A stretch of 64,000 bases of DNA, taken from the NCBI RefSeq assembly GCF_030013205.1, contig NZ_CP122648.1; one strand, given 5' to 3'. Numbering within the stretch: position 1 is the stretch's first letter; every line of letters starts with the position of its first letter. The notes under the pieces are model-generated. The model was not told the origin of the DNA. It was given only the letters and a program-made list of their open reading frames with translations, and did no database searches. This document shows, in pieces, positions 16,698 to 30,328 of the stretch. The translations under genes and the position numbers were made by a program. The DNA comes from Escherichia coli (GTDB lineage: Bacteria; Pseudomonadota; Gammaproteobacteria; Enterobacterales; Enterobacteriaceae).

Positions 16698-16702
16698 GGG
16701 CT
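16698..16702. repeat. 5-bp target-site duplication (GGGCT), glmS-proximal copy
   Basis: GGGCT immediately precedes the Tn7 right terminus TGTGGGCG at 16703; an identical GGGCT follows the left terminus at 30324-30328. Confidence 0.8.
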
Positions 16703-16800
16703 TGTGGGCGGACAATAAAGTCTTAAACTGAACAAAATAGATCTAAACTATGACAATAAAGTCTTAAACTAGACAGAATAGTTGTAAACTGAAATCAGTC
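16703..16800. repeat. Tn7 right end (Tn7R) with clustered 22-bp TnsB-binding repeats
   Basis: Terminal TGTGGGCG followed by repeated gacaataaagtcttaaact(g/a)(a/g)ac units. Confidence 0.9.
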
Positions 16801-16836
16801 CAGTTATGCTGTGAAAAAGCATACTGGACTTTTGTT

Positions 16837-17658
16837 ATGGCTAAAGCAAACTCTTCATTTTCTGAAGTGCAAATTGCCCGTCGTATTAAAGAGGGGCGTG
16901 GCCAAGGGCATGGTAAAGACTATATTCCATGGCTAACAGTACAAGAAGTTCCTTCTTCAGGTCGTTCCCACCGTATTTATTCTCATAAGACGGGACGAGT
17001 CCATCATTTGCTATCTGACTTAGAGCTTGCTGTTTTTCTCAGTCTTGAGTGGGAGAGCAGCGTGCTAGATATACGCGAGCAGTTCCCCTTATTACCTAGT
17101 GATACCAGGCAGATTGCAATAGATAGTGGTATTAAGCATCCTGTTATTCGTGGTGTAGATCAGGTTATGTCTACTGATTTTTTAGTGGACTGCAAAGATG
17201 GTCCTTTTGAGCAGTTTGCTATTCAAGTCAAACCTGCAGCAGCCTTACAAGACGAGCGTACCTTAGAAAAACTAGAACTAGAGCGTCGCTATTGGCAGCA
17301 AAAGCAAATTCCTTGGTTCATTTTTACTGATAAAGAAATAAATCCCGTAGTAAAAGAAAATATTGAATGGCTTTATTCAGTGAAAACAGAAGAAGTTTCT
17401 GCGGAGCTTTTAGCACAACTATCCCCATTGGCCCATATCCTGCAAGAAAAAGGAGATGAAAACATTATCAATGTCTGTAAGCAGGTTGATATTGCTTATG
17501 ATTTGGAGTTAGGCAAAACATTGAGTGAGATACGAGCCTTAACCGCAAATGGTTTTATTAAGTTCAATATTTATAAGTCTTTCAGGGCAAATAAGTGTGC
17601 AGATCTCTGTATTAGCCAAGTAGTGAATATGGAGGAGTTGCGCTATGTGGCAAATTAA
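16837..17658 (+). CDS. tnsA: Tn7 transposase subunit TnsA (endonuclease-like)
   Basis: 273-aa ORF (MAKANSSFSEVQIARRIKEGRGQGHGKDYIPWLTVQEV...) recognised as TnsA. Confidence 0.96.
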   Translation: MAKANSSFSEVQIARRIKEGRGQGHGKDYIPWLTVQEVPSSGRSHRIYSHKTGRVHHLLSDLELAVFLSLEWESSVLDIREQFPLLPSDTRQIAIDSGIKHPVIRGVDQVMSTDFLVDCKDGPFEQFAIQVKPAAALQDERTLEKLELERRYWQQKQIPWFIFTDKEINPVVKENIEWLYSVKTEEVSAELLAQLSPLAHILQEKGDENIINVCKQVDIAYDLELGKTLSEIRALTANGFIKFNIYKSFRANKCADLCISQVVNMEELRYVAN

Positions 17659-19753
17659 TGAGGTTGTGCTATTTGATAATGATCCGTATCGCATTTTGGC
17701 TATAGAGGATGGCCAAGTTGTCTGGATGCAAATAAGCGCTGATAAAGGAGTTCCACAAGCTAGGGCTGAGTTGTTGCTAATGCAGTATTTAGATGAAGGC
17801 CGCTTAGTTAGAACTGATGACCCTTATGTACATCTTGATTTAGAAGAGCCGTCTGTAGATTCTGTCAGCTTCCAGAAGCGCGAGGAGGATTATCGAAAAA
17901 TTCTTCCTATTATTAATAGTAAGGATCGTTTCGACCCTAAAGTCAGAAGCGAACTCGTTGAGCATGTGGTCCAAGAACATAAGGTTACTAAGGCTACAGT
18001 TTATAAGTTGTTACGCCGTTACTGGCAGCGTGGTCAAACGCCTAATGCATTAATTCCTGACTACAAAAACAGCGGTGCACCAGGGGAAAGACGTTCAGCG
18101 ACAGGAACAGCAAAGATTGGCCGAGCCAGAGAATATGGTAAGGGTGAAGGAACCAAGGTAACGCCCGAGATTGAACGCCTTTTTAGGTTGACCATAGAAA
18201 AGCACCTGTTAAATCAAAAAGGTACAAAGACCACCGTTGCCTATAGACGATTTGTGGACTTGTTTGCTCAGTATTTTCCTCGCATTCCCCAAGAGGATTA
18301 CCCAACACTACGTCAGTTTCGTTATTTTTATGATCGAGAATACCCTAAAGCTCAGCGCTTAAAGTCTAGAGTTAAAGCAGGGGTATATAAAAAAGACGTA
18401 CGACCCTTAAGTAGTACAGCCACTTCTCAGGCGTTAGGCCCTGGGAGTCGTTATGAGATTGATGCCACGATTGCTGATATTTATTTAGTGGATCATCATG
18501 ATCGCCAAAAAATCATAGGAAGACCAACGCTTTACATTGTGATTGATGTGTTTAGTCGGATGATCACGGGCTTTTATATCGGCTTTGAAAATCCGTCTTA
18601 TGTGGTGGCGATGCAGGCTTTTGTAAATGCTTGCTCTGACAAAACGGCCATTTGTGCCCAGCATGATATTGAGATTAGTAGCTCAGACTGGCCGTGTGTA
18701 GGTTTGCCAGATGTGTTGCTAGCGGACCGTGGCGAATTAATGAGTCATCAGGTCGAAGCCTTAGTTTCTAGTTTTAATGTGCGAGTGGAAAGTGCTCCAC
18801 CTAGACGTGGCGATGCTAAAGGCATAGTGGAAAGCACTTTTAGAACACTACAAGCCGAGTTTAAGTCCTTTGCACCTGGCATTGTAGAGGGCAGTCGGAT
18901 CAAAAGCCATGGTGAAACAGACTATAGGTTAGATGCATCTCTGTCGGTATTTGAGTTCACACAAATTATTTTGCGTACGATCTTATTCAGAAATAACCAT
19001 CTGGTGATGGATAAATACGATCGAGATGCTGATTTTCCTACAGATTTACCGTCTATTCCTGTCCAGCTATGGCAATGGGGTATGCAGCATCGTACAGGTA
19101 GTTTAAGGGCTGTGGAGCAAGAGCAGTTGCGAGTAGCGTTACTGCCTCGCCGAAAGGTCTCTATTTCTTCATTTGGCGTTAATTTGTGGGGTTTGTATTA
19201 CTCGGGGTCAGAGATTCTGCGTGAGGGTTGGTTGCAGCGGAGCACTGATATAGCTAGACCTCAACATTTAGAAGCGGCTTATGACCCAGTGCTGGTTGAT
19301 ACGATTTATTTGTTTCCGCAAGTTGGCAGCCGTGTATTTTGGCGCTGTAATCTGACGGAACGTAGTCGGCAGTTTAAAGGTCTCTCATTTTGGGAGGTTT
19401 GGGATATACAAGCACAAGAAAAACACAATAAAGCCAATGCGAAGCAGGATGAGTTAACTAAACGCAGGGAGCTTGAGGCGTTTATTCAGCAAACCATTCA
19501 GAAAGCGAATAAGTTAACGCCCAGTACTACTGAGCCCAAATCAACACGCATTAAGCAGATTAAAACTAATAAAAAAGAAGCCGTGACCTCGGAGCGTAAA
19601 AAACGTGCGGAGCATTTGAAGCCAAGCTCTTCAGGTGATGAGGCTAAAGTTATTCCTTTCAACGCAGTGGAAGCGGATGATCAAGAAGATTACAGCCTAC
19701 CCACATACGTGCCTGAATTATTTCAGGATCCACCAGAAAAGGATGAGTCATGA
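17645..19753 (+). CDS. tnsB: Tn7 transposase subunit TnsB (DDE recombinase)
   Basis: 702-aa ORF overlapping the tnsA 3' end. Confidence 0.96.
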
Positions 19754-29386: not shown

Positions 29387-29573
29387 AAGTAGATAAATAT
29401 CTTTATGTAGCCCTGAGTAGCCCCTGATACTTTTTATGGTGAAAAAGATAAACAATCATAGAGGGGATAAATATGAGCCAGTTCTACCATTGTTCAGATA
29501 AGTTTAAGCAAGATACTGTCAATCACAGTGACCATTCATGGTCATTACACTTCCTCCAGTTGCCAGACAATGC

Positions 29574-29813
29574 CTAACATAAAAACGCAAAAGCCCAAAA
29601 GTCAGAGCTTAGGTGTTCTAGGCGTTTTCTAAGCGCTGAAGAAATACGTCTTACCGTAGATTGCGTGCGTTTCTGAAGCACATTTTCCTTATACATGGCT
29701 TTATCCCAGGCAGCTTCATCAAGCTCTTGGAGTAACAAGCCAGTAATAATGCGACACTCTCGGGTTTGTAGCGAGCCGCTGGTGAGATCGGAGTTATAGC
29801 GGAAAGGGGTCAT
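29574..29813 (-). CDS. hypothetical small ORF between intI2 and the Tn7 left end
   Basis: 79-aa ORF only; no motif recognised; may be non-coding. Confidence 0.25.
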   Translation of the reverse strand: MTPFRYNSDLTSGSLQTRECRIITGLLLQELDEAAWDKAMYKENVLQKRTQSTVRRISSALRKRLEHLSSDFWAFAFLC

Positions 29814-30159
29814 TTGTAATTATTTGTGGGTGGAGGATAGTTAACTTATTATTGTAGTTGGAAGAGGCTGCTTTCCAAACATTAGCACCTCGTAATGCTT
29901 GTTACTGTATATTAATTTATGCTCTTAGCGCATGTTAATGGGCTATTACAATGCATAATGTCCACATCAAGATAACTGTGGCTTAACACCTGTACAAGCG
30001 AAAAAAATCAATCACCTGTCCGGAAATACGGGATCACTGTAAAGTGTTGGTGAGGCAGTCTAGGAGGGGGATTTAATTTGGGATACTGATGAAAGGATTA
30101 TGATCAGTTGGATATAGGATCGTACTAAGCTGAGCGGCAGGTTAGCTAGATTAGTTAAC

Positions 30160-30323
30160 CAGATAAGTGAAATCTAGTTCCAAACTATTTTGTCATTTTT
30201 AACTTTCGCGCTAGCTTGCAACACCACACCCAGTTTCCATCTATTTTGTCACTTTTCCCAAAATAACTCTCAAAAACCCCCATTTTCACCCCTCCCAATT
30301 CCCAACTATTTTGTCCGTCTACA
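30160..30323. repeat. Tn7 left end (Tn7L) with three TnsB-binding-type repeats
   Basis: Three spaced ctattttgtc-containing repeats (30184-30200, 30241-30256, 30306-30320); the terminus reads ...ttttgtccgtctaca. Confidence 0.85.
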
Positions 30324-30328
30324 GGGCT
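30324..30328. repeat. 5-bp target-site duplication (GGGCT), distal copy
   Basis: Identical to 16698-16702, abutting the Tn7L terminus. Confidence 0.8.

Follow-up and report, generated by a model that had tools for sequence, protein, structure and literature searches.

The 64-kb stretch of E. coli DNA analysed here (the window) carries a large insertion just downstream of glmS. The question raised by this locus is what the inserted element is, how it came to lie there and where its unusual far end originated. Its host is the pig enterotoxigenic E. coli (ETEC) strain ETEC4079, whose genome is present in RefSeq; a literature search by strain name returned nothing. We are in very little doubt that the element is a Tn7 that inserted itself by cut-and-paste into the attTn7 site of this pig ETEC strain, with a ΔestX-sat2-aadA1 cargo and a mosaic left end (Tn7L).

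The preliminary description had proposed a Tn7-family element of about 13.6 kb in attTn7, carrying resistance genes, with tnsABCDE on the plus strand and three TnsB-type repeats at the end far from glmS, close to the replication origin. Each of these statements was borne out. The element is 13,621 bp long (16703-30323 in window coordinates), with its right end (Tn7R) adjoining glmS. Comparison with a reference Tn7, the copy on plasmid R721, gave 99.8% identity over 99% of its length at the DNA level, and the alignment contained no differences across 16703-27384, that is, from Tn7R through aadA1. Five plus-strand ORFs of 273, 702, 555, 508 and 538 aa run inward from the right end in the order tnsA, B, C, D, E. 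Their products match solved structures of Tn7 proteins (Table 1), the TnsC, TnsD and TnsE matches spanning the whole of the deposited constructs, which are partial, and they have the same WP accessions as in R721. The identification is based on these PDB matches and accessions, with the NCBIfam scan of the five proteins giving nothing usable: TnsB matched IS481 and TnsC only Orc1/Cdc6, both weakly and far below threshold, and no match was returned for TnsA, TnsD or TnsE. The TnsB motif ACARWAWAGNNNNNAAYT occurs seven times in the 64 kb, compared to 0.07 expected, with four matches at 16712-16790 (+), three at 30176-30314 (-) and none elsewhere. This is the asymmetric layout of Tn7 ends, with four packed sites on the right and three spaced sites on the left, and the terminal 8 bp of the right end are exactly TGTGGGCG. 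The replication origin was placed with a 49-nt sequence that we take to be the oriC 13-mer region, and its match lies 13.9 kb from the Tn7 right end. By its sequence the element is transposon Tn7, and nothing that we found contradicts this identification.

Table 1. Features of the Tn7 insertion and its surroundings, in coordinates of the 64-kb window
Feature	Position	Strand	Evidence
oriC AT-rich 13-mer region (replication-origin marker)	2726..2774	-	exact 49-nt match
glmS, 609 aa	14848..16677	+	ORF list; RefSeq annotation of identical record
Inferred TnsD-binding segment of attTn7	16642..16677	+	position rule, PMC2918618
Target-site duplication copy 1, GGGCT	16698..16702	.	sequence
Tn7 right end, terminal 8 bp TGTGGGCG then four close-packed TnsB-type sites	16703..16793	+	motif; identical to R721 Tn7R
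Hairpin with U-rich tail, between last TnsB site and tnsA start codon	16797..16836	+	fold
tnsA	16837..17658	+	residues 1-273 match PDB 1f1z TnsA, 610 bits
tnsB, DDE transposase	17645..19753	+	residues 1-702 match PDB 7pik Tn7 TnsB, 1604 bits
tnsC, AAA+ regulator	19750..21417	+	PDB 8glu and 7mbw Tn7 TnsC, 1114 bits
tnsD, attTn7 target selector	21420..22946	+	residues 1-318 match PDB 8glu chain X Tn7 TnsD, 725 bits
tnsE, conjugal/replicating-DNA selector	22947..24563	+	residues 342-538 match PDB 5d17 Tn7 TnsE
Standard Tn7 passenger region: IS256-family transposase fragment and three hypothetical ORFs	24619..26510	-	RefSeq annotation
aadA1, streptomycin/spectinomycin resistance cassette gene, intact 262-aa ORF	26586..27374	-	ORF list
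sat2, streptothricin resistance cassette gene	27432..27956	-	WP_000704156.1; no difference from R721
estX cassette remnant, 130 bp	27968..28097	-	comparison with R721 and TUM1887; translation
intI2, class 2 integron integrase gene	28409..29386	+	usual internal stop at codon 179 (translation; RefSeq 'internal stop')
Tn7 left end, three spaced TnsB-type sites and terminal 8 bp	30173..30323	-	motif matches; sequence
Divergent tract of left end, outer 121 bp	30203..30323	.	alignment to canonical Tn7
Terminator-like hairpin and T6, original glmS terminator	30323..30350	+	terminator scan and fold
Target-site duplication copy 2, GGGCT	30324..30328	.	sequence
lpfA-O113, first gene of fimbrial operon after attTn7 in this E. 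coli lineage	30611..31183	+	RefSeq annotation

The junctions with the chromosome point to transposition. The right terminus, TGTGGGCGGACAATAAAGTC, begins at 16703, exactly 25 bp beyond the end of the glmS stop codon at 16677 (about 25 bp had been estimated), and the proposed 5-bp GGGCT duplication is present as two perfect copies. The flanks had been expected to rejoin into one contiguous empty site, and they do so in sister strains: when 400 bp from each flank are joined with a single GGGCT, many pig ETEC genomes contain the resulting sequence without interruption and at 100% identity, and the empty site was also read directly in one sister genome. Over longer distances, BLAST searches rather than base-by-base alignment were used for the sister strains. 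The right 10 kb is bit-identical to the empty-site sisters, and the left 10 kb has about one mismatch, as deduced from a 5-bit lower BLAST score; no imported flank is visible by BLAST in the 10 kb on either side. Since the closest sister strains have the empty site, the acquisition of Tn7 is recent.

The insertion also has the geometry of attTn7, lying downstream of glmS with the right end proximal and the centre of the duplication (16700) 23 bp from the inferred TnsD site. The TnsD site has been placed at +23 to +58 relative to the duplication centre (PMC2918618), which here corresponds to the last 36 bp of glmS, stop codon included; this segment differs from the K-12-type site at two wobble positions. 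Position and orientation match this rule and the canonical Tn7 in the attTn7 of FDAARGOS_536, in agreement with the site-specific, TnsD-type insertion that had been suggested. Sequence of the lpf-O113 type, as found on the far side of the element, lies downstream of glmS in about 1,920 of 5,426 E. coli genomes. Collectively, the intact genes, the duplication and the empty site suggest that the element arrived by transposition, probably directed by TnsD. In the proposed mechanism, TnsD would bind the last 36 bp of glmS as target selector, and TnsA and TnsB as transposase, with TnsC as regulator, would carry out cut-and-paste into attTn7. The element would be joined about 23 bp beyond the TnsD site with its right end towards glmS, and repair of the 5-bp stagger would produce the GGGCT duplication.

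The element had also been described as splitting the glmS terminator, with a hairpin and a T-run of seven restored by its removal. The restored empty site does fold as a hairpin (-28.6 kcal/mol, z = -5.7), but its T-run has six T. Similarly, the insertion does lie inside the terminator, but an intact copy of the hairpin stands at the Tn7L junction. The cut leaves five nucleotides of the stem on its glmS side, and these first 5 nt are the duplicated GGGCT, so that the complete hairpin and T-run are kept at this junction, where the scan predicts 9 pairs (7 of them G-C) and a loop of 4 (30323-30344 plus T6). With the insertion point at the foot of the terminator hairpin in this lineage, glmS is thereby separated from its original terminator, which now lies 13.6 kb away. 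Tn7 was described in the glmS terminator of E. coli as early as 1986 (Gay, Tybulewicz & Walker, as cited in PMC2918618), and the finding is therefore correct and already known. On the other side of the element, a simple terminator scan made no call between the glmS stop codon and tnsA. It missed a hairpin with a bulged stem in this interval, which is visible by folding only (-21 kcal/mol, z = -4.3 for 16780-16845). Canonical Tn7 also has this hairpin, which may keep some glmS transcription from continuing into tnsA.

As cargo, the element carries a class 2 integron whose array is altered. The passenger region (hypothetical ORFs at 24794-25171, 25581-25952 and 26013-26510) is without differences from R721 Tn7. 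The integron is recognised by intI2 with its stop at codon 179, by attI2, which is identical to that of R721 up to the GTT crossover site, and by sat2 and aadA1 on the opposite strand. As read from its translation, the integrase gene is inactive. The aadA1 DNA is the same as that of the R721 copy, which AMRFinder calls aadA1 at 100%. RefSeq labels aadA1 'frameshifted' here and in every Tn7 copy examined, canonical ones included. The array is ΔestX-sat2-aadA1 rather than the reference dfrA1-sat2-aadA1. Comparison with R721 revealed no dfrA1 in the element, and an estX remnant sits where reference Tn7 has that cassette. Plain loss of the dfrA1 cassette was rejected, as 130 bp of a different cassette lie in its place. 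An internal deletion of 822 bp has left the remnant with 59 nt from the start of estX and with the recombination site at the 3' end, and the remnant's ATG (28067) shares the reading frame of sat2. This array predicts resistance to streptothricin and to streptomycin/spectinomycin, and no trimethoprim resistance.

The left end differs from canonical Tn7. Its gamma (30173-30194), beta (30229-30250) and alpha (30294-30315) sites are followed by the terminal 8 bp (30316-30323). Towards the interior the terminus reads TGTAGACG, which keeps TGT/ACA but is unlike the right end's TGTGGGCG at positions 4 and 6; the same TGTAGACG also occurs in natural Tn7-like elements. Alignment of the outer 121 bp, with terminus TGTAGACGG, to canonical Tn7 revealed 19 substitutions (18 transitions and 1 transversion) and a 1-bp insertion, and the alpha-beta spacer is 1 bp longer. 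These 20 differences follow directly on 2.1 kb with none, the divergence rising from 0% to 17% immediately beyond gamma; relatives share the 30 bp that precede this point. Spacers account for 16 of the differences, and the beta and alpha sites, 44 bp together, hold only 2 (Fisher p = 0.017). One-directional, deamination-type hypermutation was rejected, as C>T occurs together with T>C and G>A with A>G.

As we read the alignments, the Methylophaga-type left end shares 14 of the 20 variant states, and other metagenomic versions have 2 more. The divergent version was found in none of the 5,426 complete E. coli genomes besides the source, with nothing closer than 90%, and was absent from 72,556 plasmids; the sole plasmid hit to the divergent 120 bp by megablast was a Methylophaga plasmid, at 90%. 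An exact search of JGI metagenomes with 42 nt of the variant terminus gave no match. A 25-mer of the terminus was found in 10 metagenome contigs and 3 species genomes, none of them identical over the 121 bp. Elsewhere, the TGTAGACGG terminus was thus found only in environmental bacteria and metagenomes. No donor of the tract was found, and we infer recombination with a relative from the abrupt change in divergence. We slightly favour the view that a Tn7 body received its left terminus from an unsampled Tn7-family element and that this chimera then moved as one unit into attTn7. Tn7L would in that case owe its outer 121 bp to that related element, with nearly all the rest being canonical Tn7, and the mosaic end was probably the one used in the transposition.

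The mosaic might instead have formed in place, with an incoming Tn7 replacing most of a Tn7-like relative resident in attTn7 by homologous recombination. One crossover in glmS or within Tn7R and a second close to the innermost TnsB site of the left end would have left the resident's outer Tn7L and its duplication behind. Because TnsD-type insertion of Tn7 takes place at a fixed position, the GGGCT duplication could also stem from a relative, and the switch in divergence just outside gamma, after 30 bp common to relatives, is consistent with such a crossover. However, the closest sisters have an empty site between (near-)identical 10-kb flanks, and the genome searches described above bear on any resident relative: none of the complete E. 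coli genomes has this left end or anything closer than 90%, and its terminus was otherwise found only in environmental bacteria and metagenomes. We regard formation in place as unlikely. Still less probable is that the whole glmS-Tn7-lpf segment came in from a different E. coli through transduction or conjugation and then homologous recombination, without transposition in this lineage. Such imports occur in E. coli, and would go unnoticed if the flanks of the donor were almost the same. Against this, the flanks are those of the empty-site sisters, bit-identically over the right 10 kb and to within about one mismatch over the left 10 kb, and the exact element, searched as one piece at 100%, matched only the source genome itself in the collection.

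The left-end version is known from one assembly only, as would be the case if it were an assembly or sequencing artefact in a plain Tn7 with a cassette change. In contrast, the twenty differences are clustered, have an 18:1 transition bias and spare the TnsB sites, and the duplication and junction are clean. Most of the variant states coincide with natural Tn7-like left ends from unrelated samples, and sequencing errors would not recreate the versions of other organisms. An artefact is hardly credible.

Apart from the absent dfrA1 and the divergent outer 121 bp of Tn7L, the element is ordinary. Through it, a pig ETEC lineage carries sat2 and aadA1 on the chromosome, independently of plasmids and 14 kb from oriC. 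The chimeric left end is the only point of wider interest. If the chimera did transpose as one unit, canonical TnsA and TnsB tolerate terminal 8 bp that are non-cognate (TGTAGACG facing TGTGGGCG) as well as a 1-bp longer spacer, and Tn7-family elements exchange ends in nature. If this end is active, it represents a natural experiment on how far TnsB tolerates altered terminal 8 bp and altered site spacing, a question of relevance to engineered Tn7 and CRISPR-associated transposon (CAST) ends (compare PMC9308760).

The environmental left ends with the TGTAGACGG terminus are those of the Methylophaga pinxianii plasmid pWTT2411, two MAGs and ten metagenome contigs. They share with the present end the terminal 25 nt, three similarly spaced sites and many distinguishing spacer states, but have at most 90% identity over 120 bp and are unrelated further inward, and none is the donor. 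Around the match in the Methylophaga plasmid lie IS elements and genes of metabolism, and tns genes are absent within 20 kb, so that this plasmid gives no information on the donor. Prototype Tn7 (R721, NC_002525.1) is 14,067 bp long, 446 bp longer than the element here. The two are identical in Tn7R, tnsABCDE, the passenger ORFs, aadA1, sat2, attI2, the intI2 stop and the inner Tn7L, with a sole substitution at 27385, and R721 Tn7 likewise has four plus three TnsB sites and a 5-bp duplication. In contrast, R721 Tn7 has the dfrA1 cassette in place of the 130-bp estX remnant and the terminus TGTGGGCGG in place of TGTAGACGG with its 19 substitutions and 1-bp insertion.

The estX-sat2-aadA1 array of Tn7 variants is known in the integron literature, and the Tn7 of E. 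coli TUM1887 (NZ_CP128963.1), which carries it, shares its backbone and the ends of its estX cassette with the present element. Left end aside, only two substitutions, at 27385 and 28086, separate it from the element described here. Its estX lacks the 822-bp internal deletion, whereas here 59 nt of coding sequence are fused in frame to sat2. The TUM1887 Tn7 also has a canonical left end and lies in conjugation-related DNA, flanked by an AAATA duplication. The Tn7 of FDAARGOS_536 occupies a K-12-type attTn7, likewise 25 bp after the glmS stop, in the same orientation, with a 5-bp duplication and inside the terminator hairpin; the sequence downstream of glmS differs from the lpf-O113 type found here. 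Its duplication, GCGGG, lies in the 3' arm, so that hairpin and T-run are separated. In the present insertion GGGCT opens the 5' arm, and the whole terminator is therefore regenerated at the left-end junction.

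The Tn7-family transposon at attTn7 that the preliminary description placed within the glmS terminator is real and was interpreted correctly; it is a textbook case in a genome annotated before. Window positions 10703-36323 are base-for-base those of the E. coli ETEC4079 chromosome (NZ_CP122643.1, 5127770-5153390), so the region was already public and RefSeq-annotated; the strain comes from pig faeces in Belgium. Megablast of the element gave 99.8% identity over 99% of the element length to many plasmids and chromosomes, including plasmid R721, which carries the reference Tn7; TnsA-E, IntI2, sat2 and aadA1 are annotated in the matched records. 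As described, the right end is followed by five plus-strand ORFs (273, 702, 555, 508 and 538 aa). The RefSeq accessions of TnsA-E are equal in the ETEC4079 element and R721, and the proteins match solved Tn7 structures (listed in the table), with each deposited chain covered full length. Base-by-base alignment with the R721 Tn7 (14,067 bp) showed zero differences across 16703-27384, comprising Tn7R, tnsABCDE, passenger ORFs and aadA1, and a single substitution at 27385; the remaining differences are confined to the cassette array and the left end. The left arm also holds a small ORF annotated 'BrxA family protein', as does canonical Tn7.

Features of the ETEC4079 Tn7 copy and its surroundings (window coordinates)
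Feature	Coordinates (strand)	Description
oriC 13-mer region	2726-2774	13.9 kb from right end
Predicted TnsD site	16642-16677	final 36 bp of glmS with its stop codon
GGGCT duplication	16698-16702; 30324-30328	5 bp
Element proper	16703-30323	13,621 bp
Right-end TnsB-type repeats	16712-16790 (+)	4 motif matches
Bulged hairpin with U-rich tail	16797-16836	inside Tn7R, between last TnsB site and tnsA start codon; -21 kcal/mol, z = -4.3
aadA1 ORF	26586-27374	intact, 262 aa
estX cassette remnant	27968-28097	130 bp
BrxA family ORF	29574-29813 (-)	Tn7 left arm
Left-end TnsB-type repeats	30176-30314 (-)	3 motif matches
Complete hairpin and T6	30323-30350	left-end junction
lpfB	31231-31962	
pstS	about 35839-36879	
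TnsA		1f1z
TnsB		7pik
TnsC		8glu, 7mbw
TnsD		8glu chain X
TnsE		5d17

The borders agree with those first proposed. glmS ends at 16677 and the right end, TGTGGGCGGACAATAAAGTC, starts at 16703, exactly 25 bp later, and the GGGCT duplication was found on both sides. A joined construct of 400 bp from each flank, the left part with one GGGCT, gave one uninterrupted 100% match in many pig ETEC genomes, and the empty attTn7 site was also read directly in the sister strain ETEC4075. A degenerate TnsB-type motif, ACARWAWAGNNNNNAAYT, built from the seven visible repeats, had 7 matches in the 64-kb window compared to 0.07 expected; all lie at the element ends, with no match elsewhere in the window. The attTn7 site of E. 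coli is expected close to oriC, and the claimed proximity to the replication origin holds. The TnsD site spans +23 to +58 with the duplication centre as position 0 (PMC2918618), and applying this rule to a centre at 16700 placed the predicted site at the end of glmS. Judged from sequence, the insertion has TnsD-pathway geometry. Canonical Tn7 in the K-12-type attTn7 of FDAARGOS_536 has equal distance (25 bp) and orientation, with GCGGG as its duplication.

Insertion of Tn7 into the E. coli glmS transcriptional terminator is credited in PMC2918618 to Gay, Tybulewicz & Walker (1986). What is new concerns only the local sequence: downstream of glmS this lineage carries the lpf-O113 operon, a junction common to about 1,920 of 5,426 genomes, and a different terminator sequence. 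The restored site has the strong hairpin and T-run described (-28.6 kcal/mol, z = -5.7; 0 of 200 shuffles as stable), although the run is of six T rather than seven, the only slip in that account. Insertion was indeed inside the terminator, but 'splitting' is only partly apt. The duplication comprises the five bases with which the stem begins, and therefore a complete terminator-like hairpin with its T6 is kept at the left-end junction. A terminator scan found no such site left between glmS and Tn7R. In contrast, the cut in the K-12-type site is in the 3' arm, so that hairpin and T-run lie on opposite sides of Tn7. The hairpin inside Tn7R belongs to canonical Tn7 and may, by conjecture, act as an attenuator or barrier to glmS read-through.

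Two features are private to this copy, an estX remnant and a chimeric left end; both are minor variants. In reference Tn7 the dfrA1 cassette directly follows attI2, whereas here dfrA1 is replaced: 130 bp separate the attI2 GTT from a normal sat2 cassette start. Comparison with the estX-sat2-aadA1 Tn7 of strain TUM1887 identified these 130 bp as an estX cassette reduced to its two ends by an internal deletion of 822 bp. What is left of the estX reading frame, 59 nt, continues in frame into sat2, and a start codon at 28067 could possibly give Sat2 a 37-aa N-terminal extension. Neither sat2 nor aadA1 differs from its reference gene, and intI2 is interrupted at codon 179 by the usual stop. The ΔestX-sat2-aadA1 content therefore predicts resistance to streptothricin and streptomycin/spectinomycin, and not to trimethoprim. 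RefSeq/PGAP labels aadA1 'frameshifted' (feature 26539-27374) in every Tn7 copy examined, including L004 and FDAARGOS_536. The ORF is intact and identical R721 DNA scored 100% aadA1 by AMRFinder; the label appears to be an artefact of annotation with the reference model.

The left end equals canonical Tn7 for 2.1 kb (28096-30202), but its outer 121 bp (30203-30323) differ by 19 substitutions and one inserted base pair, and the terminus reads inward as TGTAGACGG where canonical Tn7 has TGTGGGCGG. This sudden step in divergence, from 0% to 17%, probably marks a recombination junction. Of the 20 differences, 16 fall in the two spacers; the TnsB sites beta and alpha have one each, the terminal 8 bp have two, and the innermost site, gamma, has none (sites versus spacers, Fisher p = 0.017). 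Of the substitutions, 18 are transitions and one is a transversion, with changes going both ways. Among 5,426 complete E. coli genomes no second copy was found, every other Tn7 left end being 90% identical to this one; 72,556 plasmids gave none either, and a Methylophaga plasmid came closest, at 90%. Searches with the terminal 25-mer gave hits in 3 of about 100,000 species genomes and in 10 metagenome contigs, each time in a left end of the same three-site layout. By our own count on the alignments, Methylophaga-type ends share 14 of the 20 variant states and other metagenomic versions 2 more, leaving 4 private to the window. Since the differences spare TnsB sites and their states recur in environmental versions, the tract is a natural, constrained left-end version, and error or decay was rejected on the same evidence.

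The simplest reading is that the whole element, chimeric end included, would have transposed recently into the ETEC4079 lineage. This agrees with structural and biochemical work in which TnsB shows sequence preference rather than strict specificity and depends on site spacing (PMC9308760). The 10-kb right flank is bit-identical in six sister genomes with an empty site, and the 10-kb left flank scores 5 bits under its self-match, consistent with a single mismatch; thus there is no sign of an imported flank. A resident Tn7-like relative overwritten in place would also leave a chimeric end, but this alternative is without support because such a relative is absent from the sister strains and every other E. 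coli genome searched. Downstream of attTn7, the RefSeq accessions of the LpfB and PstS proteins differ between ETEC4079 and ETEC4075, with other sisters bit-identical over that 10 kb; this is small-scale variation among pig ETEC strains.

No donor of the 121-bp tract was found among the E. coli genomes, plasmids, species genomes and metagenomes searched. In MAG contig JAEXRL010000022.1 (845-881), 4-5 bp separate a Tn7-like left end, …GTCCGTCTACA, from TGTGGGCG, with which another Tn7-type end begins, an arrangement suggestive of two Tn7-like elements inserted in tandem at a single site. In Methylophaga pinxianii plasmid pWTT2411, a Tn7-type left end (20001-20120 of the comparison locus) adjoins IS30/IS3 fragments, glycogen genes and cytochrome c maturation genes. 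Tns genes are absent for 20 kb around, and the end is either part of a very large element or an orphan. Some mechanistic interest attaches to the ETEC4079 Tn7, in its left end only and only if activity is shown. That outer left end is related to those of environmental Tn7-like elements.
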